A DNA stretch of 64,000 bases from a virus (taxonomy: Duplodnaviria > Caudoviricetes): IMG/VR virus record IMGVR_UViG_2061766007_002855, positions 16,722 through 80,721 of that record; one strand, given 5' to 3'. Below are positions 5,672-34,489 of this stretch, piece by piece; position 1 is the stretch's first letter, and the number at the start of each line of letters is the position of its first letter. The translations under genes and the position numbers were made by a program. Under the pieces are notes generated by a model, which had not been told where the DNA came from, did not search any database, and saw only the letters and a program-made list of their open reading frames with translations.

Positions 5672-7524
5672 TATTTTGCCTCCACTCTTGGAACTCTACG
5701 TACACGCCTAACCCGTCTAACCTCTTGTTTTTTAGGAACATAACCTTCAACAGCTTCCAGGAAATATTCATTAAACAGGTATCCATAATCATTGAGTAAT
5801 CTATCAAAATCAGAATCTAATACATAAGTAGTGCAGTAATCATCTTTGTCACGTATGCCACGGCCGTAAGCTTGCATCAGAGGCATTACTGTCTGATAGA
5901 TATACCAGACATTATCGTATCGTTTACGGATATTGACTTGTGCCCCGCTTAAGTTTGGGAATGGCATTTTGAAGATTATTTGGAATCGGCATTTATCTCC
6001 TTTGAAATCTACACCATCTTTGATTCCTGCTCCAATTAGGACCATGTTGTTTTCATCATCTTCGAAGTCTTGGATTGCTTGTTCACGGCCTTTACCATAT
6101 GCAATCTTAAACCATCTGCGTGTGTAGTTGGCTAATTCGTTTCTAATGTACCATGCTTGTTCATTACTGGATACATGGATAACGCCTTTTTCATCTTTAT
6201 GGTCTTCGAGTATGTCATAGATTTTAATTAAAGCATCTTCGTTTTTCCAATTAGGAATATTCAATTTCCGATTGAATCCACTCATGCTTCCAGCATAGTC
6301 ACGGATGATTGGTCTGTTCTCTATTGAGAATGGTGATTTCTGGTAGATGTAATAGGTTTCTTTTGGATCAATACCTAACCAGTTACAGAACTTATCCTTG
6401 GACCCAAGAGTTCCGGTCATGAATAGTCTTGTTTCACCAAAATGGAATAATGATTCACCATAATCAGCTATTGTTAATGGTTTGAATTCAACAGTTAATC
6501 CTTTAACTTTCTGATTAGATACATATGAATGGTCTTCAAGGATAGCTTTCTTTGTTGGTAATTCTATAATCCATTTTTCTTCTTTAAGAGATTTGATGAG
6601 ATTATCATACTTTTCAATATCTTTAGTGTAGTTTTTTACTACATCATCATTTTCCAATAGTTGTTTTAAAACAAGGCTGTTGTCTATTTCACCATATTCG
6701 TTTTTGATATAATTGTTCCGTCTTACATTGATAGTTTCTATTAGTTTGTTACAAACTCCAATCCAGTATTTTGGTTCGCTTATATCTTTTAGTTTCAATC
6801 CGTGTTCGGTGATTCCATCGAAGATGTCTAATTCATAATCACGGTATATTGTTTTCCTGTTAAGGTTTACTGTGATTAATTGCATGATCTTCTTTTCAAG
6901 ATTATGTGCTTCATCAAGAATTAGCAAATCTCTTTCAGGTAATATTTGCGCATAGTTTCCTGCAATGTATAAGTAATCATAATTACTGATTACATTTTCT
7001 CCTTTCAATGCTTCCTTTAATGCTGCTATGTATGGACAGACTGAGTAAACTGCTGGGGCTTTACTTTCGTCTTTTTTACCGCATAGGTTGATGAGTGTTG
7101 GTTTTTGTGGTTTGGCGTATTGGTTTGGATTGTTATTGTAATCTTTTAGTGCTTGGTTGTAGTTTCTCATCATTGTATTGTTTTCTTCTTTGATGTGGCA
7201 ATTATCACAACAGCCTTTGAAATTACAATGGTAGTTTCCACGACCTTTAATTTCCTTGACCATATAATCAAAATCATGAATGTATTGGTGAAGTAACTGA
7301 TTGGTCATGGTGACAATATAACTGTTGTCTACAAAGTTTGCGATTGTTGTTGCAATAGCTGACTTGCCAGTGCCGGTTCCTGCTTCCAGGATAATGTTTT
7401 TGTAACCGTTTTCCATTGCAGTTAATATTTCAAGGATAATTTTTTCTTGTTCTGGTCTTGGATCATATCCGAGTAGGCTCCAGTTATCCCATAACTTTTT
7501 TGAGTAGTTCTTCAATTTCCTCAT
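5671..7524 (-). CDS. DinG/XPD-like SF2 DNA helicase
   Basis: Walker A EAGTGTGKS, ILDEAHN, Cys cluster (CNFKGCCDNC...CPY), motif VI QAYGRGIR. Confidence 0.9.
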   Translation of the reverse strand: MRKLKNYSKKLWDNWSLLGYDPRPEQEKIILEILTAMENGYKNIILEAGTGTGKSAIATTIANFVDNSYIVTMTNQLLHQYIHDFDYMVKEIKGRGNYHCNFKGCCDNCHIKEENNTMMRNYNQALKDYNNNPNQYAKPQKPTLINLCGKKDESKAPAVYSVCPYIAALKEALKGENVISNYDYLYIAGNYAQILPERDLLILDEAHNLEKKIMQLITVNLNRKTIYRDYELDIFDGITEHGLKLKDISEPKYWIGVCNKLIETINVRRNNYIKNEYGEIDNSLVLKQLLENDDVVKNYTKDIEKYDNLIKSLKEEKWIIELPTKKAILEDHSYVSNQKVKGLTVEFKPLTIADYGESLFHFGETRLFMTGTLGSKDKFCNWLGIDPKETYYIYQKSPFSIENRPIIRDYAGSMSGFNRKLNIPNWKNEDALIKIYDILEDHKDEKGVIHVSSNEQAWYIRNELANYTRRWFKIAYGKGREQAIQDFEDDENNMVLIGAGIKDGVDFKGDKCRFQIIFKMPFPNLSGAQVNIRKRYDNVWYIYQTVMPLMQAYGRGIRDKDDYCTTYVLDSDFDRLLNDYGYLFNEYFLEAVEGYVPKKQEVRRVRRVRRVPRVEAK

Positions 7525-8005
7525 CCTCTTCTGTGTCTATGTAAGGTAGGAAGTTTTCTTCTATGTATTTCCAGTTGTCGAAGATGTATGCTTTTGTTTT
7601 GTCTTTTGCATATTCGAACATGCAGTCTTCCATTACTAGTTCGAGTTCTTTTTGGGTTAGGTTTAGGACTTTGCATGCGTTTTCCATGTTGTGTGGTTGG
7701 TATCTTTGTGTGAATTTGTAGTCTTTCCAGATACTTAGCCATGCCATGGTTTTGTTTTCTTCGTGTACTTTTTCTATGTGTTTGTTTTCGTAGTCTACGT
7801 TCATTAGTAGGTGAATGTTGAGTTTTGCACGGTGGAAGTCTTCCCATGCTTTCCTTAATTCTTCACCTCTTTGTTCATCGTTTTCTGTTGTGAATTGGAA
7901 ATATGCGTTTAAACATTCTTCAACAAATTTACTTAGGTTTGGAATGTGTTCTTTTGCTAATTCCAGTAGCTCTTTGTCTATTGAGATGTTTGTTCTCTCT
8001 TTCAT
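7484..8005 (-). CDS. ribbon-helix-helix domain protein
   Basis: N-terminus MKERTNISIDKELLELAKEHIPNLSKFVEECL; GGTGGTGA RBS. Confidence 0.7.
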   Translation of the reverse strand: MKERTNISIDKELLELAKEHIPNLSKFVEECLNAYFQFTTENDEQRGEELRKAWEDFHRAKLNIHLLMNVDYENKHIEKVHEENKTMAWLSIWKDYKFTQRYQPHNMENACKVLNLTQKELELVMEDCMFEYAKDKTKAYIFDNWKYIEENFLPYIDTEEDEEIEELLKKVMG

Positions 8006-8029
8006 TGTTTTTTCACCACCTTTATAAGT

Positions 8030-8163
8030 TAATACTTTTTTTCTTATAGAGTAATACTTTTTTAGAGGTTAACCCTTAAAAAAAGTGTCACCCCCTAAAG
8101 CATATCATACACATTGTGTACCATACACACGATTTGTGTGTACTATACACAATACACACGATT
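8030..8163. repeat. cluster of direct and inverted repeats (candidate origin or RHH operator)
   Basis: TAATACTTTTTT at 8030 and 8052; ATACACACGATT at 8123 and 8152; palindromes TACACA-T-TGTGTA (8108-8120) and TACACAC-GATTT-GTGTGTA (8124-8142). Confidence 0.7.
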
Positions 8164-8190
8164 CTGAAAATTCTCCTTAGCAATAAATTT

Positions 8191-10173
8191 TCAGAACCCT
8201 TTTTCTACATTCTTCCTTGCTTCATTCATAATGTCATCCAAGTCACACTTCAATTCATGGCACCTCAAACCAATCTTATGCCTTACATCAACAAGAATAT
8301 CTTCATAAAACATTTCATCCCTATCAATCAATATCTTAATCATATCCTCTGCTTCTTTAACCAATTTGATTTCATTATTACTCCAAACATGCTCCAACTC
8401 ACCAGCAGTCTCAGGAGTCAAACCAATACTCTCAAGACTTGCACCATAAATACGAAGAGCATCCTTTGCATCATCAACAGTAGCCACCTCACGCAACTCT
8501 GTCTTAGCACGAGCAATAGTCAACCTTTCAATAGCTTTCAAGTCACGAGCAGTAATAGGTTTAGCACTATCATCTCTTGCTGCAGCACGTCTAGTATTAA
8601 CATAAAAATCAACAAGCAATTTTTGAGCAGATTGATCTAAAACTGGGAAACACTCCATCTTAGCATAAGTGATATACTTCTTGAATAACTCTTCATCAAG
8701 GACATCAACATCCTTCATGAAACTTTCCTTATTCAATAAACTTGTTGCTAACATACGGTCCTTTTCTTCATCAATAGTATCCTCTAATGCGAACACTAAA
8801 TCGAACCTAGACAAGTTACTTTCCGGAATGTCAATTTGTTCTTTGATGGTTTTGAACTTATTAAACCTTGAATATTTAGGATTTGCAACAGCCAATATGC
8901 TTGTACGTGCAGTCATTGTCTGAACAAGATTGGCCTTAGCAGAACTAACGCTTAACTGTTCCATTGGTTCATTCAATGACTTCTGAGTATGAGGACTCAA
9001 CTTATCGTACTCATCAACACATAACAAACCCGTATCGGCAAGTACAACAGCACCCGCCTCAAGTGTCCATGTACCTGTGAGCTCATCCTTCACAGCAGAC
9101 ACAGTAAGACCCGCTTGACTTGTGGATGTTCCACCAATACTCATGATTTTAGGAACACGTTTTTTCAATGCTGCAATAATTTGACTTTTACCAATACCTG
9201 GATCACCAATCAGGAGAACATGAATTGTCCACCTATCCATACTATCAGATTTAAAATTATCATCCAAAGGACGATTACCCTCAAACAACTGTAACAATAA
9301 CCCTTCTTTCACAGTTTTATATCCGTAAATTTCCGGTGCTAATGTATCAACAAGTTTCTGATAGATACCATTACTTTGAGATAATTCTCTGATTTTTTCT
9401 TTATCAGATTCAGTAATCCGATAGTCTTCGAAAGCATCATCAACAGGTGCGATATTATGCAAGTTAATAATGAATTCAAAATCATTCTTATTTGGACTTA
9501 CACGTTCGACACTAAAGACTCCAAGAATATCGCAGACATCACCAGCTTTAAGATTATGCTGTGGACTTGCAAGGTAATCCTGCATATACCCTTTGAACTC
9601 TCTACTGTTACCCCCTTGACGAAACTCCAAAGGTTCTTCTAATTTCACATATCGTATATTATGATATGTTGATGATTCAGGAACCATATCGAAATTTCTT
9701 CCACCACATGATGGGCATAAACTTGGCATTACCACTTGAGTAGAATCAGCAGTATCAATATAATGCATCATACCACAACCCCTGCAAATAAAAGCTGCCT
9801 GTTTAAGTGCAGGAATCGGATCAGTAATGGTTTTAATCATAGCTTTTGTAATGATTAATTCACCATTATATGTAGTGTCCAAGTCATGCAATAGGACATT
9901 TGGTGGTATTTCCACTAATTTCAAGGTAATGTAATTACGTTCTGTTCTTCCATTGTTGATACGATTTTCAACATATTTCATGAACATTTCATAATTATCT
10001 GTTAAGAATTCTTTCCCAGTTTCACGTTTGTAATATTCATTGAGTAAAGGATAATCTATGTTTATTCTTGTTGGCTTGTTCTCGGTTTTAGCCAATTGTA
10101 ATTGCTCATGATATTTACTGAGCACATATCTGAAGAATAATTTTTTTTCTTCAAGGTTATCGTCTTTACTCAA
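8191..10173 (-). CDS. mcm: MCM replicative helicase
   Basis: Zn finger CRGC...CPSCGG, Walker A GDPGIGKSQ, Walker B LCVDEYDK, Arg finger SRFD. Confidence 0.95.
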   Translation of the reverse strand: MSKDDNLEEKKLFFRYVLSKYHEQLQLAKTENKPTRINIDYPLLNEYYKRETGKEFLTDNYEMFMKYVENRINNGRTERNYITLKLVEIPPNVLLHDLDTTYNGELIITKAMIKTITDPIPALKQAAFICRGCGMMHYIDTADSTQVVMPSLCPSCGGRNFDMVPESSTYHNIRYVKLEEPLEFRQGGNSREFKGYMQDYLASPQHNLKAGDVCDILGVFSVERVSPNKNDFEFIINLHNIAPVDDAFEDYRITESDKEKIRELSQSNGIYQKLVDTLAPEIYGYKTVKEGLLLQLFEGNRPLDDNFKSDSMDRWTIHVLLIGDPGIGKSQIIAALKKRVPKIMSIGGTSTSQAGLTVSAVKDELTGTWTLEAGAVVLADTGLLCVDEYDKLSPHTQKSLNEPMEQLSVSSAKANLVQTMTARTSILAVANPKYSRFNKFKTIKEQIDIPESNLSRFDLVFALEDTIDEEKDRMLATSLLNKESFMKDVDVLDEELFKKYITYAKMECFPVLDQSAQKLLVDFYVNTRRAAARDDSAKPITARDLKAIERLTIARAKTELREVATVDDAKDALRIYGASLESIGLTPETAGELEHVWSNNEIKLVKEAEDMIKILIDRDEMFYEDILVDVRHKIGLRCHELKCDLDDIMNEARKNVEKGF

Positions 10174-10186
10174 CTTGTAACATCTC

Positions 10187-11116
10187 CTAATCTAATAATA
10201 GGGAATTTGCTTCATCATATTCTTCAAGAGTGATATTTCCTAAATCAAACATTTTAAATACTTCATCAACCACACCAGATTTAGTGACAGCTTCTTCTGT
10301 TTCACGTATTCTAGATACAGCCTTTTTGATTGTAGCATTTTTATCTGCTAATTCTTTAAGGGAAGATGGTGCTTTTGAAGATGAGTCAGTTGTTTTTTCA
10401 TCTTCATTTTGAACAACTTCTGCAACTTCTTCAATCACATTAGTTTCAATCACATCATCTTCTTCCACTTTCTTTGCCCGTCTTCTTCTACGAGTTTTAG
10501 TTTGTTTAACATCAGAAGAAGAATCAGAACTATTTTCAGAAACAACTTTATCTTCATCAGCATTTCTTGAAGTTCTTTGAACTCTTTTAGGAGTTTCCAA
10601 TTCTTCTGCGGATACTTCACCTGCACCAATAAGGTCCGCTATTGCACGTGATTTTGCACGAGTATGTGCTGTTGAAATCACATCATGTTCCGCATTAGTG
10701 AAACGTTTACGAAGTTCAAAGTTAGATGGCATTTCTTTATCGTCCTTATTGACTTTATCAAAGATACTGCAATCTCCAACTCCAATACCATACCTACCAT
10801 TAGGAAGGATAGCTTTCACTTCAAAGTAAGCAGAGATGATCTGAAAATTATCTTCTCTGATAATTCTATCACAAATTTTTTCATCACTAATATTGAATGC
10901 TCTTGCGAGTTTACGCCAAGCACTTTTTTTCTTTTTACCACTTTGATAATCGTTTTCCTTATCCAGTAATGCTTCAACAAGTCCTTCAAAGTTCTTTTGA
11001 GCTTCTACTGCATAATCAATATCAACTAAATCTAATTGGTTAATATGAGATACTGCAGTAGTATCTTCTACTACTGCAATTTCATTTTCAACTTCAGCAG
11101 GCATCTTAAACTCCAC
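10187..11116 (-). CDS. putative single-strand annealing/recombination protein
   Basis: KKSAWRKLARAFNIS...AHTRAKSRAIADLIG resembles Rad52/Sak-like annealases; disordered C-terminus; sits between SSB-like gene and MCM. Confidence 0.5.
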   Translation of the reverse strand: MEFKMPAEVENEIAVVEDTTAVSHINQLDLVDIDYAVEAQKNFEGLVEALLDKENDYQSGKKKKSAWRKLARAFNISDEKICDRIIREDNFQIISAYFEVKAILPNGRYGIGVGDCSIFDKVNKDDKEMPSNFELRKRFTNAEHDVISTAHTRAKSRAIADLIGAGEVSAEELETPKRVQRTSRNADEDKVVSENSSDSSSDVKQTKTRRRRRAKKVEEDDVIETNVIEEVAEVVQNEDEKTTDSSSKAPSSLKELADKNATIKKAVSRIRETEEAVTKSGVVDEVFKMFDLGNITLEEYDEANSLLLD

Positions 11117-17509: not shown

Positions 17510-17924
17510 CTACTTTTTTGGTTTTTATGTATTATAGTATAGTGTTGATAGTATTTATAACAACAAGGTATTCACAACCTTGAAAATGTTTTAAAAAAAT
17601 ATATGCTGCATAAAAAAATGGGGGAAAAGTGATTTGCAATATTTAGTTATAAGAGTGTATGGGAAATAATCATCCCATTCCCATTTATTGATGCAACATA
17701 TATTAGTTCTCTATAGCTCATTTAAAATGTTTAAACCAAAAGTTGGTATGTTCATAACCTATAATAAGAGGATGGAAAGTATTAATATTCTAAAACAAAT
17801 ATATGGAGTGATTTTAGATGAATAAAAAGATATTTTTATTTATGCAATTCCTCCAATCCTCTTTTATTTTAAGATAGGTTATGTTTAATAGTATTGTACT
17901 TTCATTGATACTTTTGTAACAATA

Positions 17925-19124
17925 CTATTCTTTTTCACTAATCTTTTCAAGAATACTTGTACGTGAAACTGGTCGACTATCTATATCTGATAATCTATCT
18001 TCAATGTTTGATATTCTATCATTCATTTTCTTGACTTCAGCTTCTTTCTGTTTATACTTGAACTCTAACTCTTGATATTCCGGACTCTTCAAATCAATAT
18101 TATTGACTTTTGCTTCTATAAGTAAACATTGGAAATGTTCAACATATTTCTTCAACAATATTGTTGGATCATCAAGGAAATATGCTGCACGAGTTGAAGA
18201 TTTGGTCCTGCCCTGGAGTGCATCAATATCTGATTCACTCATACCTGATTTCTTCAAATGATTTGAATGAAATTTCCTCATCATATGACTTCTGAACCTG
18301 TTGAATCCATCACTAGCTTGACCCATATCAAATTGGTCATTGTATCTGTAGAATGCAACTGGAAGATAGTTCTCTGCTTTGTTGAATAATTTATCCTCCT
18401 CAGATAAGTCAATTAACTTAACTTGGCCATCTTCTGTTGTTTGAATCCTATCAGTCAGCAAGTATTCAACAATCTTAGACACAGCTTCAGGGCTACAAAA
18501 TGTATAATAATACTTGTTTGTTTTTTCCCTTTTGAGTTTAAAAGTAGGAATAACATTCTCCATGTCTTTTAAAACATTTAATGCTTCAACAATATCATCT
18601 TTTTTATGGAAGGGATATGTTGCTTTTTTGAATTGGCCTATGGTCATTTCGATTGTTTCTTTTCTTGCACAACCTGAACTTGTCATGAAGACCAGGACTG
18701 CTTGAAACCATAATGGTGAAACATGCATGATTTTTGATATCTCTTCATGTGTTGGAAGTTCATCAAAAGTTGGATCACCTGGTTTGTTGAAGCTTCGGCT
18801 ATTTGGTTTGGCGAGGTCTCCGATTTCAATTTCATAATATTTGTATACAGATTTTACTTCAACGAAATATTGTTGTGCGGTGTTTTTCCGGTATTTCTGT
18901 ATTAGATGGGAACGGTAGTTTAATAGTCTTTTTTTGAGTTTTCTTCGTTTCCATATAATATTATTGTCTTCTTCTGTCTCTGCTTCTTCAATGAGTTCTT
19001 GCATTGTTTTTCCACAGAATTTAGAGTAATGGTTTATTGACCTGAGGTATGATTCTTGGGTTTTTGGACTGTGTCCTTTGACAATGAAGAAATCTTGAAG
19101 AAATTCTTTATTGTTCATGTTCAT
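17925..19124 (-). CDS. int: tyrosine recombinase/integrase
   Basis: N-terminal SAM-like region; catalytic pattern SGCAR, RSHMMRK (HxxR), LQGR and final Tyr (AAYF). Confidence 0.9.
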   Translation of the reverse strand: MNMNNKEFLQDFFIVKGHSPKTQESYLRSINHYSKFCGKTMQELIEEAETEEDNNIIWKRRKLKKRLLNYRSHLIQKYRKNTAQQYFVEVKSVYKYYEIEIGDLAKPNSRSFNKPGDPTFDELPTHEEISKIMHVSPLWFQAVLVFMTSSGCARKETIEMTIGQFKKATYPFHKKDDIVEALNVLKDMENVIPTFKLKREKTNKYYYTFCSPEAVSKIVEYLLTDRIQTTEDGQVKLIDLSEEDKLFNKAENYLPVAFYRYNDQFDMGQASDGFNRFRSHMMRKFHSNHLKKSGMSESDIDALQGRTKSSTRAAYFLDDPTILLKKYVEHFQCLLIEAKVNNIDLKSPEYQELEFKYKQKEAEVKKMNDRISNIEDRLSDIDSRPVSRTSILEKISEKE

Positions 19125-19164: not shown

Positions 19165-19596
19165 CATTTGAAAAGTAATATTTTGTATTGCTCTTCAAAT
19201 GGGTTTATCATATTTCAGGTCATATGGTATATATAGTCTATGAAATATGATAACATTTTAATTGTTTATCATATTCATAGTAATATAGTATAAATATTCT
19301 CCTAAATATGATTAACAATTGTGCCCTCTCTGTTTGGTTATTTCTGTGTTTTGAGAGATAAATAACTAATTATACAATGATGTACTTTTTTGTACATCAA
19401 AGTTTTTAGTTCACAATTGTTATATAGCATTTTATAACACATAGTATAAAAACTTTTAGGACAACCCAAAAAAAATAAGGGGGCCAACCAACTACAAAAT
19501 GTAGTCAATTGACCCCCTAAAGTATAAAACAAAATCCCATCACAAAAAAATATCCAAACAATTGAAGCAAAATAGAATTCATGAGAGTGCTCTCAT
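19165..19596. repeat. palindrome-rich non-coding region upstream of the recombinase (candidate attP/operators)
   Basis: CATTTGAA/TTCAAATG (19165/19194); ATATGATAAC..GTTTATCATAT (19245-19274) plus third copy at 19203; TGATGTAC-T6-GTACATCA (19378-19399); TGTTATA/TATAACA (19418/19433); ACTACA-AAA-TGTAGT; ATGAGAG-TG-CTCTCAT (19581-19596). Confidence 0.55.
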
Positions 19597-20189: not shown

Positions 20190-21956
20190 TTACCCCCTTG
20201 TAATTACCATAACACTTTTCTGTGAAATTCCATTAATATAACTCTGGAATTCAGATTTAGAACGATATTCAATATATCCACAATAACAATCATTACATGA
20301 CCTGTAACCTAAACTGTTCTGGACATTAATGTTACTGTCATTCACAGCATTAATAACTTCATAATGGCCGTCAGACAGACGATAGAGATTATGTATAATA
20401 CAATCTTGATTCTTGGACTCAATAATCTTTTTAACTCCACTCCAACCAAGTTCACTAAAACTATACCATTTGACAGATAATTTCACACCTAATTGTTTAG
20501 CTGCTTTTGCAATTGCAGTTTCCAAACCTTGATGATCTGTACCTCCACTACCAGTTCCAGCCCATCCTGCAAGTGTAGCTTGAGGAATCACTTTACCAGT
20601 TAAGTTTCGTATACATTCCTGCATACTGTGAGGACCACAATAAACTCCGTTATTCTGGCCCATATTGTTACAGCCGGATTTGGTTGCATGGCCGTATTTG
20701 GATTTAGTAGTTGAAGTATTAGTTTTTGAACTGGAAGAAGATGATGATGCTGTGAATCTACCGGAATTATAAGTACAATAATTAGGTAAAGTCTTATTAT
20801 GGCCGTAATACCAGACAATGATTCTTGCCAATGCATCAATACTTACACGTGGCCGGACTTTCTTCTTAGATTTCACGCTAGTCACATAATTAGGTGCTTG
20901 GCCATGTTCTTTAATATACTGCACAACCCTTTTGGATTGATTCTGGAAATCAGATGGATAAATATCTTCGTTAATGGTATCTCCGGTTGCTTTAACGCAA
21001 GTTTTAACACTTGGAACAGCAGATAAATTTTTTCCAAGATTATTAACATGCCATGATAAAATATACCATACTTGAGGCCAAGTATACTTCACATTAGCAA
21101 CAGTTACTGAGGAGGGTAACTTCTTATTAGCTTCAACATATTTCTTCACAGTAGTGGCCATAGCTTTAATATTAGCTGCGGAAATACCAGTAGATTTAGT
21201 TGTAGTTTTAGTTGTGGTTTTGTCTTGCAATGAAGTGAAATTAACATTTGGTGATAAACCATAACGGAACAATATTATTCCTTTTGCACCATTACTTATG
21301 CATGTTTTAGCATCAGTTAATATTTCATTGGCAGATAATGCGGTTGGATTATCATCAGATTTATATGATTGCAGACCACTCCAAATCTTTGCTTTAGCGC
21401 TGAAGAATTTTGTAGTAGATTTCAACCAATCAGTACCAGCTTTGTAGTTACCTTTGTACTGCATTGGAATGATTGCATCAACAGTTTTAGCTAATGCATC
21501 AATGTCTTGCCCATAATATTTCTTGCATTCTGTTTCAGGCATTACTGCACATGAAAGAAATGTTTTTGGATTTTGTTTGCGGACAGTTTTCACAAAATTA
21601 GTGATTGCATCTGCACCACCAGATGTTTTATATGCAGTTCCAGGATATCTTAAATAATCAAGATGAATCCCTTTAACATTAACTATAGCAGCATATTTCT
21701 TGATCTCTTTTAACTTCGCATTCAAGTTAGTTGTTTTAGGGTTATGCCAACTTCCATCATAGAAGCATTGCACCCAAATATGCACGTTAATATTATTATT
21801 TTTTGCTTTTTTAATCCAAGATGTGACCTTGGATTCTCCATGTGCTGTGAAAGCATAATAGTTTAAGAATATATCTGTAACTCCATTCTTATGTAGAGTT
21901 TCAAGGTTTACCTTATTCATATCTGCTCCAAACAGCCAATAACCAAAATTTTTCAT
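20190..21956 (-). CDS. endolysin: glycoside-hydrolase-like TIM barrel + pseudomurein-binding repeats + C39-like cysteine peptidase
   Basis: GIHLDYLRYPG barrel motif; PMBR-like AMATTVKKYVEANKKLPSSV and QSKRVVQYIKEHGQAPNYV; YCGPHS...GHYEVI. Confidence 0.8.
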   Translation of the reverse strand: MKNFGYWLFGADMNKVNLETLHKNGVTDIFLNYYAFTAHGESKVTSWIKKAKNNNINVHIWVQCFYDGSWHNPKTTNLNAKLKEIKKYAAIVNVKGIHLDYLRYPGTAYKTSGGADAITNFVKTVRKQNPKTFLSCAVMPETECKKYYGQDIDALAKTVDAIIPMQYKGNYKAGTDWLKSTTKFFSAKAKIWSGLQSYKSDDNPTALSANEILTDAKTCISNGAKGIILFRYGLSPNVNFTSLQDKTTTKTTTKSTGISAANIKAMATTVKKYVEANKKLPSSVTVANVKYTWPQVWYILSWHVNNLGKNLSAVPSVKTCVKATGDTINEDIYPSDFQNQSKRVVQYIKEHGQAPNYVTSVKSKKKVRPRVSIDALARIIVWYYGHNKTLPNYCTYNSGRFTASSSSSSSKTNTSTTKSKYGHATKSGCNNMGQNNGVYCGPHSMQECIRNLTGKVIPQATLAGWAGTGSGGTDHQGLETAIAKAAKQLGVKLSVKWYSFSELGWSGVKKIIESKNQDCIIHNLYRLSDGHYEVINAVNDSNINVQNSLGYRSCNDCYCGYIEYRSKSEFQSYINGISQKSVMVITRG

Positions 21957-22118: not shown

Positions 22119-23114
22119 TTAACCAACAAAAAAAGTAAGTGACATTGGAACCCATAAATTTTTAGGGATAGTATATTCCCCCTTATTATTGGAATCAGTA
22201 AACCTACCTATTACTACTGCACCACTCTCCCAAATTTGAACATTTGCTCTTTGTTTTGAACTTGTTTGAATTACCCAATTTTCAGTTTTAGATGGATAAA
22301 ATCGAGAATCTGGCAACATAAACACGTTAATATAATCTGTATAGTTCAGTAATGGGTAAGTAGTAAGAGCTTTTGCAGTACCTCGAATATGAACTACATT
22401 TCCAATTCTGCGAGCAGACGGTTTATTGTTTGTATCATATACTCCAAAAATAGGATCCTCAAAATCAGTAATCTCTACCCATCCAGTATCATATTTTACA
22501 TTACATTGTACTTTCTGATTGTTCACTTGAAATGTTACAATCCCCTCAGTTTCAGCAGTATAAACTGAGGAAAAAATACCTTGATTATTAGTAGTTCCAG
22601 TTTTCCATAATGTCCCATTTTTATAGATAATTACTTGATGACCAGATACGGGAGTATTGTTCATATTAGTAACTTTAACAGAAATTGTAGATTGTTTATC
22701 TGGTAAAATATCACTTCCCCTATTCATATTATAATTTGAGGCAGTGATATCATAATTATACAAATCTGTGATTGATTTTTTTAAATGAGTGTGACTTGCT
22801 TTAGCAAAACCATCTGATTGAATACCTCCTAATGTTGTTGCGTTAATTGTTGCAACTTCATCAGTATTAGCTAATATTTCATCAATAGTTAAACCAGCAA
22901 GACTACTATTCTCATCAAATTGAGTATAATCCTCATTCAAGGTATCTAACTTTGCTTTTAATTCATCAAATTGAGTTTTATTAGTTACTTGGATGCTATC
23001 AATTGTTTGACCATTATCTGCAACTACAATTACACGAGCACCAATAACATTATCATCTTCACGATTATAAACTTCAGTTTCAAAACTAGTCATATTTACA
23101 TCCCTCCAAATCAT
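22119..23114 (-). CDS. tail fibre/receptor-binding-like protein with Ig-like domain
   Basis: ISVKVTNMNNTPVSGHQV Ig-like segment; DTGWVEI...RRIGNVVHIRG C-terminal pattern of minor tail proteins; start probably MTSFET. Confidence 0.6.
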   Translation of the reverse strand: MIWRDVNMTSFETEVYNREDDNVIGARVIVVADNGQTIDSIQVTNKTQFDELKAKLDTLNEDYTQFDENSSLAGLTIDEILANTDEVATINATTLGGIQSDGFAKASHTHLKKSITDLYNYDITASNYNMNRGSDILPDKQSTISVKVTNMNNTPVSGHQVIIYKNGTLWKTGTTNNQGIFSSVYTAETEGIVTFQVNNQKVQCNVKYDTGWVEITDFEDPIFGVYDTNNKPSARRIGNVVHIRGTAKALTTYPLLNYTDYINVFMLPDSRFYPSKTENWVIQTSSKQRANVQIWESGAVVIGRFTDSNNKGEYTIPKNLWVPMSLTFFVG

Positions 23115-25594
23115 GTTTTGTATTCAAAGTAATTTTGTCTGATTATCATTTGCTTATCTTTATTGGTTCTTTTAGCACGATAACCTAATGCAATACCAGT
23201 ATCTTCAAGGTTTGGAGTGTAAATGACAACTAATTTATCTCCAGCATTCAAGATGGTTTCTGAATTATTATTTAAGGTTGGGAAATTGATTGTATGATTA
23301 ATGTAATCTACTGTGAAGTCAATGTCTTCACGTTTTTCTTTACCATTCAATAATACTTGGCGAATTGGATCAACAGCAGAGACACGAAGAACAACATTAC
23401 GATTTTCCAATTCAGAATCAGATATGATGAAAGTTTCCTTGAAATAATCTAATATTAAACCTTCACCTTCTTCACGGAGACCAACTTCTTCATTTGTTAA
23501 ATCTTGAATGAATACTGGATTGTAACTTATACTCAGGTTTCCAACTGGGATATCGGTGATTACATCATTTGTAGAATCAGAATAAAACTTAAGAATATCA
23601 TTATCATAATCAAAAGTAAAATCTAACCATTCACCATATGATTGGACTTCAGTATCCCCATCAGGTTGGATTAAACATTGTTTAATTGGATAAGCCGGAC
23701 TATTAGTGAATTGTATACCCTCTTCAAAGCTTAATAAATCAGTAACAGTTTTATTATCCTTTGTATAAGTATAAGGTTTAACATAAATGTTTTCGGCTTT
23801 TAAAAGATTCAATGCAACTGGAGAATCAATTAAATATTGATATCTTACATCTAAGTCTTCATCAGTAATCTTTTCAACATCAAGTCCAGGGATTGTTGGT
23901 TGCAATACATTATCTTCATCAAGATAAGTGTAATCAGATAATTCTTCTGCAGTAATGATTGTGAAATGTTCTGTGAATAATCTTTCTTGGATCACTTCAA
24001 CACTACCAGTTACTCCAGGTTCTGCTGTGAATGGAGCGTAAATACGGCCCCAAACATTTGCACCAAGCATTGGTGAAAGTTTCGGATAATAGAATAAAGT
24101 TCTCGCATACATCTCTGATGGGGAATCAAGAGTAAGTGATACAATGAATTTTTCAATATATGGAGTGACTTCAGTAGTAGTGCTTCCTGATGGTAATGCT
24201 GCTTTCATACGGGCTCTTACAAATACCATATGAGGATATTCTCCAGTTTGACCATCAATTGAAAATCTAGCTTTATAATTTTCATCAAGAGTACGCCAAC
24301 TATTAGGTTTACCTGTAGAAGAAACTTCAAAAATCAATTCATTATTATTACTATTCTCATTTCCTCCAACACGGATTGGATTAATAGTAACTTCTTTAAC
24401 AGGATTGGTGATAATTGGATTTAAGTATAAGAAATATTCTTCAGTAGTATCACGGCCACTAGTATATTCACGGATGTGACATTGGAAAGCAAAATCCTGT
24501 GGAGTTAGTTGACCAAATTTATATTGTACTTTCAAATCATTACGGCCATAACGCATAAATCCTTTACCATTATTTTCAGATAAGAATGCATCTCCACCAG
24601 CATATTTCTGGTCTCTTGCACAATTACGGCCCCATCCCCCCCATCTTGGGCAATGGTCATAATGACTTAATGGACTGAATAATACAATAGCATATTTTTC
24701 ACCAGCATTAACAGTAATAGCTTTATCCAAAAGGAAATTTTGGAAGCTTGGACTTGTTTTAGTTGGATAATAAATACTTTGTGCTAATGGTTTTTTAGGA
24801 CTTCCACTTGGCCATGCAACATATTCATATTGTTTAGGATTATATGATACTGCTTTTTTCTTTGTTTTATTCCAGTAAGTTCTCTCAACTTTTTTCTGTT
24901 TTGTTTTCCAGATTTGAACAATTAATGGACTTCCCCAGTTACTGGAGGTAGTACCATTATTTTCAAGTTTTAAATCAACAGATTCAAGTTTACCATCTGT
25001 AATGCCATTTGGTATTGTGAAAGTTTGAGCTCTTACAACAGAAGGGATTTCCTCATCAAAACAATCAGCTAACCAATCAGGCCGTACTTGATATGATTTA
25101 CTTTTATCATAACCCACATACCATGCACTATTACAACCTTGATTTGCAGCAATAGTTCTGCAATCAAGATTAACTGTACTTTCCATAACCATTGGGACAC
25201 AGGCCCTCATTTGCTCTCCAGTAATAACGCCATTTGTTTTAACAGGAATAGTTTCAAAAGCACAATCACTATTGTTTTCATCAATGATTGTGAAATCTGT
25301 GAAATCAACAATTACTTCTTCAGCAAGATCATCATTAAAAGTAACAGTATTCTTCCTAGAATCCTCACCACTATTTAACTTACAACCCCAACTATTCAGG
25401 GAATCTAAGACAATTGGTGAAAACCTTTTCCTCACAGCAGGAGGAGTCAGATATTCTAATTCTTCAACTTTCTTTTTCAACCATTCATCATTCTTACAAT
25501 TCTGCTCAGCCCATTGAACAGTAGGATACATTTGTTCTGAGAATGATTTAATTTCACTTAACTTTTTATATTCAGCAGGACAATTATCAACCAT
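23111..25594 (-). CDS. large tail/baseplate-associated structural protein
   Basis: 827 aa, beta-rich, position in tail module. Confidence 0.65.
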   Translation of the reverse strand: MVDNCPAEYKKLSEIKSFSEQMYPTVQWAEQNCKNDEWLKKKVEELEYLTPPAVRKRFSPIVLDSLNSWGCKLNSGEDSRKNTVTFNDDLAEEVIVDFTDFTIIDENNSDCAFETIPVKTNGVITGEQMRACVPMVMESTVNLDCRTIAANQGCNSAWYVGYDKSKSYQVRPDWLADCFDEEIPSVVRAQTFTIPNGITDGKLESVDLKLENNGTTSSNWGSPLIVQIWKTKQKKVERTYWNKTKKKAVSYNPKQYEYVAWPSGSPKKPLAQSIYYPTKTSPSFQNFLLDKAITVNAGEKYAIVLFSPLSHYDHCPRWGGWGRNCARDQKYAGGDAFLSENNGKGFMRYGRNDLKVQYKFGQLTPQDFAFQCHIREYTSGRDTTEEYFLYLNPIITNPVKEVTINPIRVGGNENSNNNELIFEVSSTGKPNSWRTLDENYKARFSIDGQTGEYPHMVFVRARMKAALPSGSTTTEVTPYIEKFIVSLTLDSPSEMYARTLFYYPKLSPMLGANVWGRIYAPFTAEPGVTGSVEVIQERLFTEHFTIITAEELSDYTYLDEDNVLQPTIPGLDVEKITDEDLDVRYQYLIDSPVALNLLKAENIYVKPYTYTKDNKTVTDLLSFEEGIQFTNSPAYPIKQCLIQPDGDTEVQSYGEWLDFTFDYDNDILKFYSDSTNDVITDIPVGNLSISYNPVFIQDLTNEEVGLREEGEGLILDYFKETFIISDSELENRNVVLRVSAVDPIRQVLLNGKEKREDIDFTVDYINHTINFPTLNNNSETILNAGDKLVVIYTPNLEDTGIALGYRAKRTNKDKQMIIRQNYFEYKT

Positions 25595-25600
25595 ACATTA

Positions 25601-26233
25601 TCACCTTGTTGCAATTAAAATCTTCAAATCATTCGGATCACTATTATTAATCGTACGAATAAACAAAGTCTTCGTATTATCATCATAAAAATAAGCACCA
25701 GTAGCAGATTTCAAAGCATTTAAAGTTTTAACACCTTTATACCCATTAATTGATTTAGCAACACCGCTAACTTCTTCAGAAACACCAACAACAGGATTCT
25801 CTTCAACAGTAAAATAAATATTATACCTTGTATTACCAGTATCAGCACTTGAATAATGCTGCCAATTACTCCTTTGACTACTGGTTAACAAATCAATAGT
25901 ATAAGTGACTTCAACACTATCAATATCATTAGTTATGAAAGAATCATTGATAGCATCATAAACATCATGACTTATCAATACATCACCACTAACTGCACCA
26001 ATCTCAGTAGTGCCTAGAATCTCTTTTGCAGTGCAACTACAACTTAAATTAATCTGTTTAGTTTCAAGATTAACTTCACAAACACATTTTTTCCGGACAG
26101 TCTCATTTCCAAGACTAATATCCGATTTCATAGCAACAATACTACTATTACCAAAAACAAGATATTCTATAGGAGTAAATTCATTATTTATAATCCTGTT
26201 CAATAGAAATGATTCACCTAACAATGTAATCAT
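25601..26233 (-). CDS. tail fibre attachment/baseplate-associated protein (putative)
   Basis: IEYLVFGNS...DISLGNETVRK resembles N-termini of tail-collar/fibre proteins. Confidence 0.5.
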   Translation of the reverse strand: MITLLGESFLLNRIINNEFTPIEYLVFGNSSIVAMKSDISLGNETVRKKCVCEVNLETKQINLSCSCTAKEILGTTEIGAVSGDVLISHDVYDAINDSFITNDIDSVEVTYTIDLLTSSQRSNWQHYSSADTGNTRYNIYFTVEENPVVGVSEEVSGVAKSINGYKGVKTLNALKSATGAYFYDDNTKTLFIRTINNSDPNDLKILIATR

Positions 26234-26496
26234 ATGAATTTCACCTCAGAGTTATTAATTTTCAATTTTGTATTAACATTAACCTGATTAGATTCCCCTA
26301 CAGTTTCAGAAGATTGGATTAAGTTAATATGAATCTTTTTTGTTGGGGAAATCAGTTTTTGCAACCTAATTGTAAGGTTAGGTACATTTTCACGTGAAAT
26401 GTTCGCAGGTATTTTGTTCGGGTCGAAATATAGATCATAATTGTTTGGTGTCATATATGGCTCATGCCAGAAATGTTTGCAATGTTTATTTACCAT
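26230..26496 (-). CDS. hypothetical protein
   Basis: 88 aa, 4-nt overlap. Confidence 0.6.
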   Translation of the reverse strand: MVNKHCKHFWHEPYMTPNNYDLYFDPNKIPANISRENVPNLTIRLQKLISPTKKIHINLIQSSETVGESNQVNVNTKLKINNSEVKFI

Positions 26497-26535
26497 AATT
26501 ATGACTTCCCTTTTTTATTTTAAAAAAAGAAGATA

Positions 26536-26802
26536 TTATTCTTCAATAATAATATCTTCTTCATAAGTTTCATCATGAATTTCTACAATAACATGATAAT
26601 CTTTTATTGTTGAAGTACCACATCGACCAATACCGTTATTATCAGTTTGTGTTCCGAAAGCGCTTCCATCATCTAATTTGATTGTGATAGGAGTGTTCGG
26701 ATAGTCGGTATGTGCTTCAATTTGGAGCACTTCTATTTGTTGAGTTCTTTTGTCGTCAATTGGTATTTCTTCGGTTTCGATATTATATTCAAGTTTGAAC
26801 AT
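26536..26802 (-). CDS. hypothetical protein
   Basis: 88 aa, GAGGTGA RBS. Confidence 0.7.
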   Translation of the reverse strand: MFKLEYNIETEEIPIDDKRTQQIEVLQIEAHTDYPNTPITIKLDDGSAFGTQTDNNGIGRCGTSTIKDYHVIVEIHDETYEEDIIIEE

Positions 26803-26865
26803 GGTTTTTCACCTCGAGTTTTGATATAAAGTCAAAAGATTTGACTATAAAAATAAAGAAAATAT

Positions 26866-27324
26866 GTAAAAGATAAAGATAATATACTCACATTCAACCA
26901 ATGGAGTGGAACAGACTATGATAAAAATACTACTGGTTTTGCACATTCAACAGATGTTACAATCTATTCCTCATCTGAAAAATCAGTTACAGGGGATTAT
27001 AGTTTAAAAGCAAAAGTAACCGGAAGCGGAAATAGTAAATGGTTTAGAGTAGCCCCTACAATAAGCGATGATAGTTTAACTGACATTACTACTTCACTAA
27101 AAATATTAACCTATGCTAATGCCCAATTATTCATAACTCAATATTCAGGTAGTACTTCAGTTAAATCTAATAATATATCTATCAGCTCATCAGATGATTG
27201 GCAAACAATAACTCTTACAGACACTATAACATCCAGTATTGATAATATCCAGTTCCATATTAGTTTTTATGGAAATCAGGGAGAGGAATGTTATACTGAT
27301 GATTGGAAATTAATCATAACATAA
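26866..27324 (+). CDS. silent cassette 1, CBM/galactose-binding-like domain (no own start)
   Basis: VKDKDNILTFNQWSGTDY...CYTDDWKLIIT*; absent from ORF track. Confidence 0.8.
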   Translation, partial: VKDKDNILTFNQWSGTDYDKNTTGFAHSTDVTIYSSSEKSVTGDYSLKAKVTGSGNSKWFRVAPTISDDSLTDITTSLKILTYANAQLFITQYSGSTSVKSNNISISSSDDWQTITLTDTITSSIDNIQFHISFYGNQGEECYTDDWKLIIT

Positions 27325-27330
27325 TATTTT

Positions 27331-27768
27331 GTAAAAGATAAAAATAATTTGTATCCTTATCAAGTATGGTCTTGTGGGGATTATGATTCCAGTTTGCCTT
27401 TAACTAATTCGGATCATAATGTTTCTATGGAAATATCTGGTGAATATTCTGTGAATGGAAATAAAAGTTTCAAATTCGTGAAATCAAATGAAAATACTGC
27501 ATTTATTATGTATGATTGCCAATTTTCAGAACAAAAACCTTTAACCCTTACAGGGAATATCAACACAAATATTCGTTGTGTTATCGCATTAAGGTTAAGG
27601 AAGGATTCTGAAAATATAACTGTAAATTCTGTAGACATATCTTCTACAGGGAATTTTGAAGTATCTGTTACTCCAACAGAAGAATATGATTATACCCGAC
27701 TATTTATTACAGTATATGGAACTACTGGTAACATCATCTATTTAGATAATCTTAAATTGAGTACTTAG
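27331..27768 (+). CDS. silent cassette 2
   Basis: VKDKNNLYPYQVWSCGDY...IYLDNLKLST*. Confidence 0.8.
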   Translation, partial: VKDKNNLYPYQVWSCGDYDSSLPLTNSDHNVSMEISGEYSVNGNKSFKFVKSNENTAFIMYDCQFSEQKPLTLTGNINTNIRCVIALRLRKDSENITVNSVDISSTGNFEVSVTPTEEYDYTRLFITVYGTTGNIIYLDNLKLST

Positions 27769-28226
27769 TAAAAGATAAAACCAACATTTTATCTATAAAT
27801 TTATGGAGCGGAGGGGAATTAAATGATTCCGTTTCTTCCTCTGAAATTACATTAGTAGGATACTCCGCAACAGCATCTAATGAATTTGCAAGTAATGGAT
27901 ATAAAAGTTTAAATTTAACAAAAACAACTAATTCCTCAGATTACGTTAGAATACCATTTGATATATCTGAAACTTCCAGTTTAACATGTAAATTAGATAT
28001 ATTCACACCAAATTGTAGTTGTACTGTAATGTTATTGCAATACAATAGCAGCAATACTCTGGTTAATCAAACATCTGTTACTGTAAATCAAAGCAATGAA
28101 AAATCATCAGTCCTTATTGAACCTTCATTACAGGAAACATGTACTCATTGTAATATTCAAATTAGGGAAAATGATACTACTCAAGGAGTCTCCTTTTGGG
28201 TAGACAATATTCAATGTTATCAGTAA
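27768..28226 (+). CDS. silent cassette 3
   Basis: VKDKTNILSINLWSGGEL...FWVDNIQCYQ*. Confidence 0.8.
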   Translation, partial: VKDKTNILSINLWSGGELNDSVSSSEITLVGYSATASNEFASNGYKSLNLTKTTNSSDYVRIPFDISETSSLTCKLDIFTPNCSCTVMLLQYNSSNTLVNQTSVTVNQSNEKSSVLIEPSLQETCTHCNIQIRENDTTQGVSFWVDNIQCYQ

Positions 28227-28678
28227 AAGATAAAAACAATTTATTACCCTATAATAAATGGTCCTGTGGGGAATACCAAAATGCAGATAATTTTTATATA
28301 TTTAGTGGGAATAAAGAACTCACTTCAGACCATGTAAGTATTGGAAACAAAGCTATCCATTTTTATAATAACCCCCCTTCAAATATTAGTATAGGAGTTA
28401 CATACTTAGATGTTTCAGAAGATCAAATAGGTAAATCATTTGAATTCAAAGCAAAAGTATATAATCCTAATGAGAATGCTTTGGTTCAAATGATTATTGG
28501 AACTCCAACTGAAAATATCAGAAATATTGTGATTCCTCAAAATACTGATTTTGTTGAAGTTAGTTCTACATCCATAACTGTTCCTGAAACAAGTGACTTA
28601 AGATGTATTTTTAATGTTCGTGAAACTGACAAGGTATACAATTTATTTGTGGATGATATCTCATTAACCATTCAGTAA
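28223..28678 (+). CDS. silent cassette 4
   Basis: VKDKNNLLPYNKWSCGEY...FVDDISLTIQ*. Confidence 0.8.
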   Translation, partial: VKDKNNLLPYNKWSCGEYQNADNFYIFSGNKELTSDHVSIGNKAIHFYNNPPSNISIGVTYLDVSEDQIGKSFEFKAKVYNPNENALVQMIIGTPTENIRNIVIPQNTDFVEVSSTSITVPETSDLRCIFNVRETDKVYNLFVDDISLTIQ

Positions 28679-29127
28679 AAGATAACGATAACCTCCTCAC
28701 ATTTAACCAATGGGTTTGTGGAGAATACTCAAATAACTTTACAGATTTCAATGTTCCAAATCCAACATATACTTCATTAACTGAAGAATATGCTTTCAAT
28801 GGAAACAAATCTATTAAACTAATTCAATCAAATGGATCAATAAATATAGCTTTGCAATTGAATTTAGATTTGGGTTCTGATTACATTGGTAAAACTTTAA
28901 AGTTTTCTAGTAAAATATTTAATAAAGATGTGTCTACATCTGCATTGAAAGCATATATTAGTAATTCTCAAGTAGCTAGTGTGGATATTCCAGTTAATTC
29001 TAGTTTTAATTCTTATAATTTGCAATTTGAGTATACTGGAACTGCAGTAATTAGTTTTATTAATTATGGTTCAACTTCTGGTCAAGAAATGTTTATTGAT
29101 GATTTGAAATTAGAAGTCATTTCATAA
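28675..29127 (+). CDS. silent cassette 5
   Basis: VKDNDNLLTFNQWVCGEY...FIDDLKLEVIS*. Confidence 0.8.
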   Translation, partial: VKDNDNLLTFNQWVCGEYSNNFTDFNVPNPTYTSLTEEYAFNGNKSIKLIQSNGSINIALQLNLDLGSDYIGKTLKFSSKIFNKDVSTSALKAYISNSQVASVDIPVNSSFNSYNLQFEYTGTAVISFINYGSTSGQEMFIDDLKLEVIS

Positions 29128-29131
29128 TTTT

Positions 29132-29590
29132 GTAAAAGATAATGCGAACTTATGTACTTATAATGTATGGGCATGTGGAGAATATCTAAATTCCACCAAC
29201 GTGTTTGTTGTTATTCCTCCAAATGTAATACTTTCAACTGATTATTCTACAATAGGAAACTCTTGTTTTAAAATAACAAAAACAACAAACAACAATGAAT
29301 ATCTGGGAATAGATGTGATATCTCTAAGTGAAATTGATACAACTAAATCTGCAAAAATATCAGGAGATATTTATTTACTTAATGGGTCTTGTACCATACA
29401 GCAACGTTTTTATGATGAAAATAACACCCAACTCAATGCAGACTCTATTCAAATTACTCCTTCAAAACAACATTTTGAAATAACTTCCCAATTAGTAAGT
29501 GATTTAAGTAGGATTCGTTTTTTTATCACATTTTCAGGAATGGCTGGAGATGTTTATTATCTAGATAATCTATCTTTATCCATTCAGTAA
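29132..29590 (+). CDS. silent cassette 6
   Basis: VKDNANLCTYNVWACGEY...YLDNLSLSIQ*. Confidence 0.8.
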   Translation, partial: VKDNANLCTYNVWACGEYLNSTNVFVVIPPNVILSTDYSTIGNSCFKITKTTNNNEYLGIDVISLSEIDTTKSAKISGDIYLLNGSCTIQQRFYDENNTQLNADSIQITPSKQHFEITSQLVSDLSRIRFFITFSGMAGDVYYLDNLSLSIQ

Positions 29591-30054
29591 AAGAGAAACG
29601 AAATTTACTCTCACACAGTTTATGGTCCTGTGGGGATTTCAATGAAGAGGTCATCACTATTATGCATTCATGGAATACTAATACACTTGAAATAACCTCC
29701 GACTATGTAACCATTGGAAACAAAGGATTAAAAGCAACACAATCCGGAAATGGAAAATTTATAGGCCCACAATTAACTGATGTAAGTGATTGTATTGGAA
29801 AAACATTAAAATTTTCTGTAGATATTTTAACTCTCCACGTTGATTTGAAAATTACATTAATGCAAAACAATGGTACAACTTATACTTCAACTCAATCTAC
29901 AAGCATTTCAAGTGGGTCATCTACTCATGCTGAAGTAAGCTCAACAATTGAAAGTGATACTACAATGATCTGGATAAGAATTGAACAATCAGGTACCTCT
30001 TGGGGAACTGGAGAAATATTTTATACTGATAATTGGTGTCTAGAAGAAGTTTAA
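29587..30054 (+). CDS. silent cassette 7
   Basis: VKEKRNLLSHSLWSCGDF...YTDNWCLEEV*. Confidence 0.8.
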   Translation, partial: VKEKRNLLSHSLWSCGDFNEEVITIMHSWNTNTLEITSDYVTIGNKGLKATQSGNGKFIGPQLTDVSDCIGKTLKFSVDILTLHVDLKITLMQNNGTTYTSTQSTSISSGSSTHAEVSSTIESDTTMIWIRIEQSGTSWGTGEIFYTDNWCLEEV

Positions 30055-31392: not shown

Positions 31393-31395
31393 AGA

Positions 31396-33641: not shown

Positions 33642-33646
33642 AGATT

Positions 33647-34489
33647 TTAAGATTCTAATAATTCCCACTTATCAGTATAAAAAGTAACATCCCCTGATGA
33701 AGATACCACTCGCATTTTTAACTCTGTTAAATTGGATGGAAATTGACTTGAAGAAATACTAACAGATAATGTGCATGGTTCTCCAGTTGTTGATTCACTA
33801 CTGTATAATACTACATTAGTATCCCCCACAGCGATTAATAATAATCGTACTGTGGAATCAGTTAAAATATCTAGTTTAGCAGTGTAATTTTTAGTTGAAT
33901 CTACAGAAATGTAGTGATATTCTGTGTAATTAGTAGTGTTGACAATTGTATGGTTTATACATTGATTACCATTACTGGACCAGTCAGAAGATGGGGTTAC
34001 ATTGGAATTTCCTTCAGTTGATGCAAGATATCCTTGAGTAGTATGTTCAAATGAAATACTATTATTATAATCACTTCCAGTTGCTAAATCAAAAGGTAAA
34101 ATATTAGTTTTATCTTTTACAAACATGCGGATATCATCTCCTGCATGTGTGCCTCTCACAACTGCATGAACATCATAAATATCCGCTTCAGTAACACGAT
34201 GACTGAAAGTGGAAATACCATTACTATCAGTAGCATCCATACCCAAGAGTGTGGTGCCTTTATACCATTCAACTACTTTGTTCGCTAATGCAGTATTGTT
34301 TTTATCTTTCACAGTACAAGTGTAAGTTACAAGACCAGTTACTACAGCATTTTCATTTGTTATATTTACTTTTAAATCATTTTGGTTCATAAAATCATCC
34401 ATTTCAGATAGTTTTTCATTCACTCCTAAATCGGAGAGTACTTGAGTTACTTCGTCTTCAATATTAAGCAAGTTTTCTATATCCGGCAA
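33647..34489 (-). CDS. adhesin/receptor-binding protein: constant 123-aa Ig-like N-terminus + currently fused cassette 16 (33647-34120)
   Basis: GGTGA RBS, TTG start; YTCTVKDKNNTALANKVV Ig-like segment; in-frame junction ...DIRMF|VKDKTNIL at 34120. Confidence 0.85.
   Translation of the reverse strand: MPDIENLLNIEDEVTQVLSDLGVNEKLSEMDDFMNQNDLKVNITNENAVVTGLVTYTCTVKDKNNTALANKVVEWYKGTTLLGMDATDSNGISTFSHRVTEADIYDVHAVVRGTHAGDDIRMFVKDKTNILPFDLATGSDYNNSISFEHTTQGYLASTEGNSNVTPSSDWSSNGNQCINHTIVNTTNYTEYHYISVDSTKNYTAKLDILTDSTVRLLLIAVGDTNVVLYSSESTTGEPCTLSVSISSSQFPSNLTELKMRVVSSSGDVTFYTDKWELLES

Follow-up and report, generated by a model that had tools for sequence, protein, structure and literature searches.

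The tyrosine recombinase Rci of R64 acts on many short asymmetric sfx sites and produces inversions without deletions between same-strand sites; it adjoins its shufflon, and its catalytic arginine is canonical. In phiCh1, a virus of Natrialba magadii, the recombinase Int1 is said to invert the ends of the tail-fibre genes, in work attributed to Klein and colleagues in 2012, which PMC8371274 cites. The Rin shufflon of Bifidobacterium prophages integrated at dnaJ2 pairs an integrase with a predicted tyrosine invertase, and an 11-bp asymmetric site precedes each of its variable receptor-binding tips (Mavrich et al. 2018, PMC6109161). As of that study, an invertase supplied in trans had gone unreported in phage genomes (PMC6109161). 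A review of archaeal recombinases found no link to Rci (PMC8371274). Closer to the present virus, the integrase of MSTV1 lies at the provirus end and excision has been reported, with no mention of inversion in the paper concerned (PMC11375127), and our search of the literature on shufflons or invertases of Methanobrevibacter viruses found nothing specific.

The locus described here comes from an IMG/VR virus record of 80,721 bp, of which the window, that is the whole stretch of 64,000 nucleotides analysed, covers bases 16722-80721. The ends of the record share a 29-bp overlap, which makes it a circular assembly of about 80.7 kb, and CheckV puts its completeness at 100%. A lysin with a pseudomurein-binding repeat is encoded at 20190-21956, and this, together with the genes for an MCM helicase and PCNA and a G+C content near 33%, indicates a tailed virus of Methanobacteriales. 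The host group is Methanobrevibacter and the virus is one of rumen methanogens: its relatives are found in Methanobrevibacter metagenome-assembled genomes (MAGs) of rumen and gut, and the sequencing runs containing the sequence are bovine or other gut metagenomes. The initial annotation had seen no host DNA in the window; this observation holds, and the absence is explained by the record being a circular 80.7-kb Methanobrevibacter virus.

The array of inverted cassettes has the following layout in window coordinates:

26866..30051, plus strand: seven silent cassettes, each starting with GTAAAAGATAA, one with GTAAAAGAGAA
30054..34120, minus strand: nine cassettes on the expressed strand, of which the cassette at 33650-34120 is joined to the constant part
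33647..34489, minus strand: expressed adhesin gene of 280 aa, with an Ig-like N-terminal part of 123 aa followed by the site and then the current cassette

The GTAAAAGATAA sites thus number seven on the plus strand and nine on the minus strand and recur with a period of about 455 bp; across the window, the pattern with at most one mismatch is matched 22 times against 4.8 matches expected by chance. All 16 tail-tip cassettes are intact and encode 142-157 aa, with an identity to the first cassette of only 17-29%. The valine codon that opens the cassette is GTA at 16 of the 16 sites here and at all sites in the related genomes G001, G007 and G006, while it is GTG in G005 (11/11 sites) and G008 (4/4), the genomic usage of these codons being 0.29 for GTA and 0.12 for GTG. 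Judging from these patterns, the array sites are under constraint at the DNA level and behave as a recombination target. A loose scan of IMG/VR with a two-site DNA pattern returned chance matches only. Inversion of the array cassettes happens, and its outcome is seen between near-identical assemblies: in an independent 81-kb assembly from another study the flanks are about 99% identical, and the cassette at 28220-28685 is inverted with zero mismatches.

These properties of the sites bear on whether a site-specific enzyme is involved at all. Homologous or microhomology recombination at the 11-bp repeat, for example through a viral annealase, would dispense with one, and the shortness of the repeat and the ERCC4 nuclease, PCNA and helicase encoded by the genome could be cited in its favour. 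However, a single synonymous valine codon is fixed within each genome and differs between genomes, the cassettes are otherwise just 17-29% identical, and the junctions are precise and in frame, all of which fits a defined crossover site; further, no annealase was found among the ORFs scanned. We consider recombination of this kind exceedingly improbable.

As a separate observation, the module comprising the adhesin and the array (window 22119-34489) directly follows a 914-aa fibre gene in the present genome, and in G001, G005 and G008 it follows a block of genes for proteins of 88 aa, 210 aa, 827 aa and 331 aa. It seems that adhesin and array move together.

No recombinase domain was detected in the four ORFs flanking the array (25601-26233, 26230-26496, 26536-26802 and 34502-37246), in agreement with the initial annotation, which had denied them a recombinase identity. 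It had also counted a single tyrosine recombinase in the window, and this too stands: a family-specific profile found no second member of the family within the window, and no serine recombinase of the resolvase type (PF00239) was found anywhere in the record. The single gene and its associated sites are as follows:

17925..19124, minus strand: P0001, a predicted tyrosine integrase of 399 aa, in which the core-binding domain is of the SAM-like type and the catalytic domain is accompanied by a coiled-coil extension at the C-terminus
19283..19296, no strand assigned: putative attP core ATATAGTATAAATA, 14 bp, 159 bp upstream of the P0001 start codon
19205..19314, at 19205 (plus), 19244 (minus), 19266 (plus) and 19305 (minus): four TTATCATATT boxes around the attP core, presumed integrase-binding sites

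The P0001 ORF is real and intact, and its start (19124) lies 7.7 kb from the first array site (26866). The SAM-like N-terminal domain is recovered above the Pfam cut-off (26.1 bits), while the catalytic domain (Phage_integrase, PF00589) reaches 20.6 bits, below the Pfam cut-off of 27.1. A direct sequence search of the PDB with P0001 as sole query gave no match. The AlphaFold (AF2) model, with an alignment of 46 homologues behind it, has a pLDDT of 88.8, and a Foldseek comparison of this model with the PDB retrieved tyrosine recombinases only, namely XerA, IntI4, Cre, XerH, the Tn1549 Int and lambda Int, with a probability of 1.00. The predicted structure is that of a two-domain tyrosine recombinase with a helical core-binding and a catalytic domain. 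In a profile alignment H280-x-x-R283, G305-R306 and Y315 fall on box II of XerA, with an arginine (R306) at the position where His or Trp is expected, and R154 is one residue off the canonical arginine in an alignment with IntI4 that operates at the sequence level only. The putative catalytic set is composed of R154, H280-x-x-R283, R306 and Y315. The protein is not XerA: its score against the NCBIfam XerA equivalog model is 26.3 bits, with a cut-off of 220.

The genomic setting of P0001 is that of an integrase. Exact copies of the TTATCATATT box number four in the 64-kb window and three of these four are at attP, where the box at 19305 on the minus strand carries one mismatch. In a Methanobrevibacter MAG from goat omasum (G007), a contig of 121 kb (G007:C23) is colinear with the present genome over the tail-fibre region, the terminase and the replication genes, up to an orthologue of P0001 with 78% identity. 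This orthologue is the final viral gene on the contig, and within 150 bp of it begin the host genes, which include those for a PLP-dependent enzyme (PALP), endonuclease III, EPSP synthase and other housekeeping functions. The opposite end of the provirus, with the lysin, lies on a second contig (G007:C31), and the 14-bp ATATAGTATAAATA is common to attP, to attR on the former contig and to attL on the latter. The host flanks are contiguous in all 11 of the provirus-free Methanobrevibacter genomes compared; six of them carry the exact 14-mer, as an attB located about 10 nt beyond the stop of the host PALP gene. The layout of attP is also kept beside the P0001 orthologues of G001 and G003, in which the core is a 13-bp version. 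The integrases nearest to P0001 are those of MSTV1 (ORF1) and vir080.

Taken together, these observations make it very probable that P0001 is the integrase of this virus, which together with attP would insert the circular 80.7-kb genome at an intergenic attB, some 10 nt downstream of the host PALP stop codon. One option of the initial annotation, an excised genome whose enzyme is its integrase, is thereby borne out by the mapped attP, attL, attR and attB. With attP and attB defined, this offers an integration system for rumen Methanobrevibacter.

A search of the whole record for another recombinase, as the initial annotation had recommended, did find one. P0002, a protein of 345 aa encoded at genome positions 7394-8431 on the plus strand, in the 16.7 kb that the window leaves out, is the lone large plus-strand gene of its region, shares the SAM-like domain of P0001 and is a paralogue of it (38% identity over the full length, E = 3e-64). 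A six-frame search of the whole record with PF00589 recovered P0001 only and missed P0002, which surfaced solely via the SAM-like N-terminal domain. The earlier statement that P0001 was the only candidate is hence right for the window and wrong for the genome. Like P0001, P0002 is not XerA (42.7 bits against the NCBIfam equivalog cut-off of 220).

We also observed that the 18-mer TTGATACTTTTGTAACAA has exactly three copies, one just 3' of the integrase stop (window 17905-17922), one just upstream of the P0002 start (genome 7365-7382) and a third in the early region (genome 10478-10495). It may be a shared regulatory element joining both recombinase genes.

In a phylogeny of 92 homologues drawn from IMG/VR and from genomes of Methanobacteriales (87 once identical sequences were removed), P0002 belongs to a monophyletic group of 54 proteins with a modest support of 0.59, which we term clade B. 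Its members are about 345 aa long and are without the C-terminal coiled coil of the integrases. The nearest neighbours of the MSTV1 and vir080 integrases in the tree are members of another group, clade A; the integrases of MSTV1, vir080, psiM100 and psiM2 match P0001 with higher scores than they do P0002, and the reference integrases of the named viruses MSTV1, vir080, vir075 and vir249 are outside clade B in four of four cases. In the column of the first catalytic arginine, which rests on a sequence alignment offset by one residue relative to the canonical arginine, clade B has lysine in 52 of 54 members and methionine in the other two, as against arginine in 31 of the 34 remaining proteins; in P0002 the lysine is K150, and Y295 is the presumed catalytic tyrosine. 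Replacement of the first catalytic arginine usually cripples tyrosine recombinases. Hence, clade B enzymes may work differently or need a partner, and the lysine could reflect reduced or altered chemistry.

Directly 3' of P0002 are two tRNA-like genes (L002:8435-8524 and L002:8535-8636, genome coordinates). Both are G+C-rich with long insertions, possibly introns, and ARAGORN assigns them as Arg(CCT) and Ile(AAT); one scores 35.6 bits against the Rfam tRNA model and the second has a tRNA-like fold. Such an arrangement looks like an integration module, and tRNA genes also follow the closest P0002 orthologues in G001 and G007, raising the alternative that P0002 is a second integrase targeting a tRNA gene while some other factor flips the array. 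However, no equivalent of the tRNA-like sequences was found in four host genomes free of the provirus, and in G007 their only match is to the provirus interior; they therefore look virus-borne. Moreover, the clade B gene is itself internal in that provirus, with viral genes on either side, the tRNA identities vary among the relatives, and most clade B genes are without a nearby tRNA. We regard a tRNA-directed role of P0002 as quite unlikely, and the tRNA-like genes were dropped as a candidate attP module given the missing host counterpart and the internal position of the clade B gene in the provirus.

The phyletic distribution of the two recombinases relative to the array separates them. Arrays of the same cassette family are present in G001, G005, G007 (on a separate small contig), G008 and G009, and G006 has one cassette and a second site. 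A clade B gene is present in every one of these array-bearing relatives (G001, G005, G006, G007, G008 and G009), whereas orthologues of P0001 occur only in G000, G001, G003 and G007. The circular G005 genome (126-bp overlap) carries an array of 11 cassettes, the core of which is almost the same, and has no P0001-like protein; its two recombinases are a clade B member and a canonical enzyme of 453 aa that is not related to P0001. Conversely, G003 answers an earlier question as to whether relatives without the array keep P0001: it retains an orthologue with 74% identity, the 16-cassette type of array is absent, and the C-terminus of a fibre gene has an inverted switch of two cassettes instead, with an exact 26-bp inverted repeat.

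These patterns weigh on the alternative that P0001 is bifunctional, integrating the genome and flipping the array as well. It is the recombinase closest to the array in this genome, at 7.7 kb, has the canonical type of arginine, and could draw on the precedent of archaeal integrases that catalyse inversion too (PMC8371274). Nevertheless, an array without a P0001-like gene in G005 and an orthologue without the array in G003 speak against it, as does the sequence of the sites: no TTATCATATT box is found at the array sites, and the attP core and boxes share nothing with them. A dual function is thus highly unlikely in our estimation. Since the occurrence of the orthologues does not follow that of the array and the boxes are absent from the array sites, P0001 is disfavoured as the invertase in general; the initial annotation's suggestions that it might also act as an invertase, or be a dedicated distant one, both lose ground on this account, and P0001 is probably not the enzyme that inverts the array.

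As for clade B, its genes lie close to inverted cassettes, at 0.3-3 kb, in five viral lineages (G005, G006, G008, G009 and L264). The separation from the array is 2-3 kb in G005, G008 and G009, and in G006 the gene is about 300 bp from the last site. L264 has a mini-array with the core TTCAGCGAATAAT, the first site of which starts 6 bp after the stop codon of the clade B gene. Here and in G001, on the other hand, P0002 and its counterpart are non-adjacent to the array, at a distance of about 35 kb. Inverted coding duplicates are present in eight of nine viruses with clade B as opposed to none of the four reference viruses with a non-clade-B integrase only, although these counts are not independent as the viral genomes are interrelated. 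Clade B enzymes with 68-70% identity to P0002 adjoin other cores, namely TTCAGCGAATAAT in L264 and the 26-bp repeat in G003, which makes the argument from a conserved site to a conserved enzyme a weak one; a comparison of GTAAAAGATAA with the inverted repeats of the other loci of clade B gave no common motif. The initial annotation had envisaged a second recombinase in strict co-occurrence with the array: P0002 does exist and its clade co-occurs with the array, though not strictly.

In relatives without the array we observed minimal inverted switches, which comprise one to three silent cassettes with other cores at the C-termini of fibre genes:

G003, 56183-57311 (L019:16183-17311): minimal switch
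G004, 29675-30752 and 24080-26137: minimal switches
G002, 9706-10895: minimal switch
L264:11020-12987: minimal switch

It may also be mentioned that a MAG contig of 130.6 kb in G008 (G008:C273, L122-L126) is internally repetitive at a period of 77.1 kb. It looks like a virus genome of 77 kb, concatemeric or circular, that was binned with a roe-deer Methanobrevibacter.

Clade B is also encoded by the hosts, with several genes in each of the Methanobrevibacter genomes. At least seven loci in Methanobrevibacter or Methanobacterium have a clade B gene beside hsdS, and in five of them hsdM adjoins:

L082:8800-12400: hsdS-linked clade B locus (type I restriction-modification)
L075, L081, L089, L091, L099 and L109: further hsdS-linked clade B loci of the same kind

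At L075, L082 and L109 the clade B gene is flanked by hsdS genes that are inverted relative to each other. The L082 locus is from a complete chromosome, that of Methanobrevibacter sp. DSM 116169 (NZ_CP166990.1, within about 1,579,600-1,600,500), in which two hsdS genes of opposite orientation enclose the clade B gene beside hsdM, and the exact inverted repeats measure 65 bp and 37 bp. By their arrangement, these loci look like invertible specificity genes in archaea. A crude screen of host MAG loci for an inverted coding pair within 6 kb scored 5 of 33 clade B loci and 2 of 19 others, that is without clear enrichment, in a procedure so insensitive that it missed the hsdS pair of L082; a clade B made up of invertases throughout is therefore a candidate reading. 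We treat with some reserve, as a possibility just short of an even chance, the broader proposal that the Methanobacteriales clade with lysine in lieu of the first catalytic arginine comprises dedicated DNA invertases, which would act on hsdS in hosts and on receptor-binding tips in viruses, and, in the present virus, in trans on an array of 16 sites some 35 kb distant.

The abundance of these enzymes in the hosts brings up the alternative that the array is flipped by a host enzyme, either a chromosomal clade B member that normally serves hsdS or XerA, with P0002 doing something else. The several clade B genes per Methanobrevibacter genome would provide for this, and globally trans-acting invertases are known in Bacteroides from work cited in PMC6109161. 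Yet each array-bearing virus has its own clade B gene, often adjoining the array, and neither viral protein qualifies as XerA (26 and 43 bits against the cut-off of 220). A host enzyme as the agent is, in our assessment, unlikely.

We thus return to P0002, which is the best invertase candidate because clade B genes are found in all array-bearing relatives, near inverted cassettes in five lineages and beside hsdS. On balance the genomic context slightly favours P0002 as the invertase of the array. The reading given in the initial annotation is supported in part. Of the options that it listed, an enzyme outside the window is the best supported owing to the paralogous recombinase at genome 7394-8431, which stands as a candidate only. 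In the mechanism we propose, a site-specific enzyme other than P0001 would flip the array at the GTAAAAGATAA sites, and P0002 would be this enzyme, acting in trans from about 35 kb. The complete two-part reading, with P0001 as the integrase and the array flipped in trans by P0002, is one we hold to be a little better than evenly balanced. The question of which enzyme flips the array is now narrowed to two genes, P0001 and P0002. If P0002 is the invertase, an archaeal clade with a non-canonical residue at the arginine position would link the switching of restriction specificity in hosts with the switching of host range in viruses, with a bearing on virus-host dynamics in gut and rumen methanogens.

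When set beside known systems, the host loci recall invertible hsdS loci such as the pneumococcal SpnD39III, in that clade B lies beside hsdS, usually next to hsdM, and in L075, L082 and L109 the genes are inverted. The SpnD39III-type loci are bacterial, whereas the archaeal clade B loci are candidate invertible loci known from sequence, and we know of no relationship between the recombinases of SpnD39III-type loci and clade B. With Rci and sfx of R64 the present array shares, going by their description, the many short asymmetric sites; it differs in the adjacency of Rci to its shufflon and in the canonical arginine of that enzyme. phiCh1, likewise compared by description, is also a tailed virus of an archaeon and carries two genes for tyrosine recombinases; there, however, int1 reportedly sits between two inverted genes in a two-gene switch rather than a multi-cassette array.

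P0001 itself finds a close parallel in the ORF1 integrase of MSTV1 from Methanobrevibacter smithii (PMC11375127), with 40% identity over residues 5-384 (260 bits); both have a C-terminal extension, the provirus-end position and a lysis module next to them, and MSTV1 differs in having a single recombinase and no inverted cassettes. P0001 is an ordinary integrase in all probability, and what sets the system apart is the unlinked candidate invertase, an array of this size, an archaeon as host and the lysine-bearing clade. The closest precedent is the Rin shufflon, which likewise belongs to a temperate tailed virus with two different tyrosine recombinases and 11-bp sites. In that system rin abuts the array; here the candidate is about 35 kb off, though adjacent in relatives. 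If P0002 is the invertase, a virus can encode its invertase away from the DNA on which it acts, an arrangement unreported in phage genomes according to Mavrich et al. 2018. The present system further departs from Rin in its 16 cassettes, its archaeal host and a candidate invertase with lysine at the position of the first catalytic arginine.
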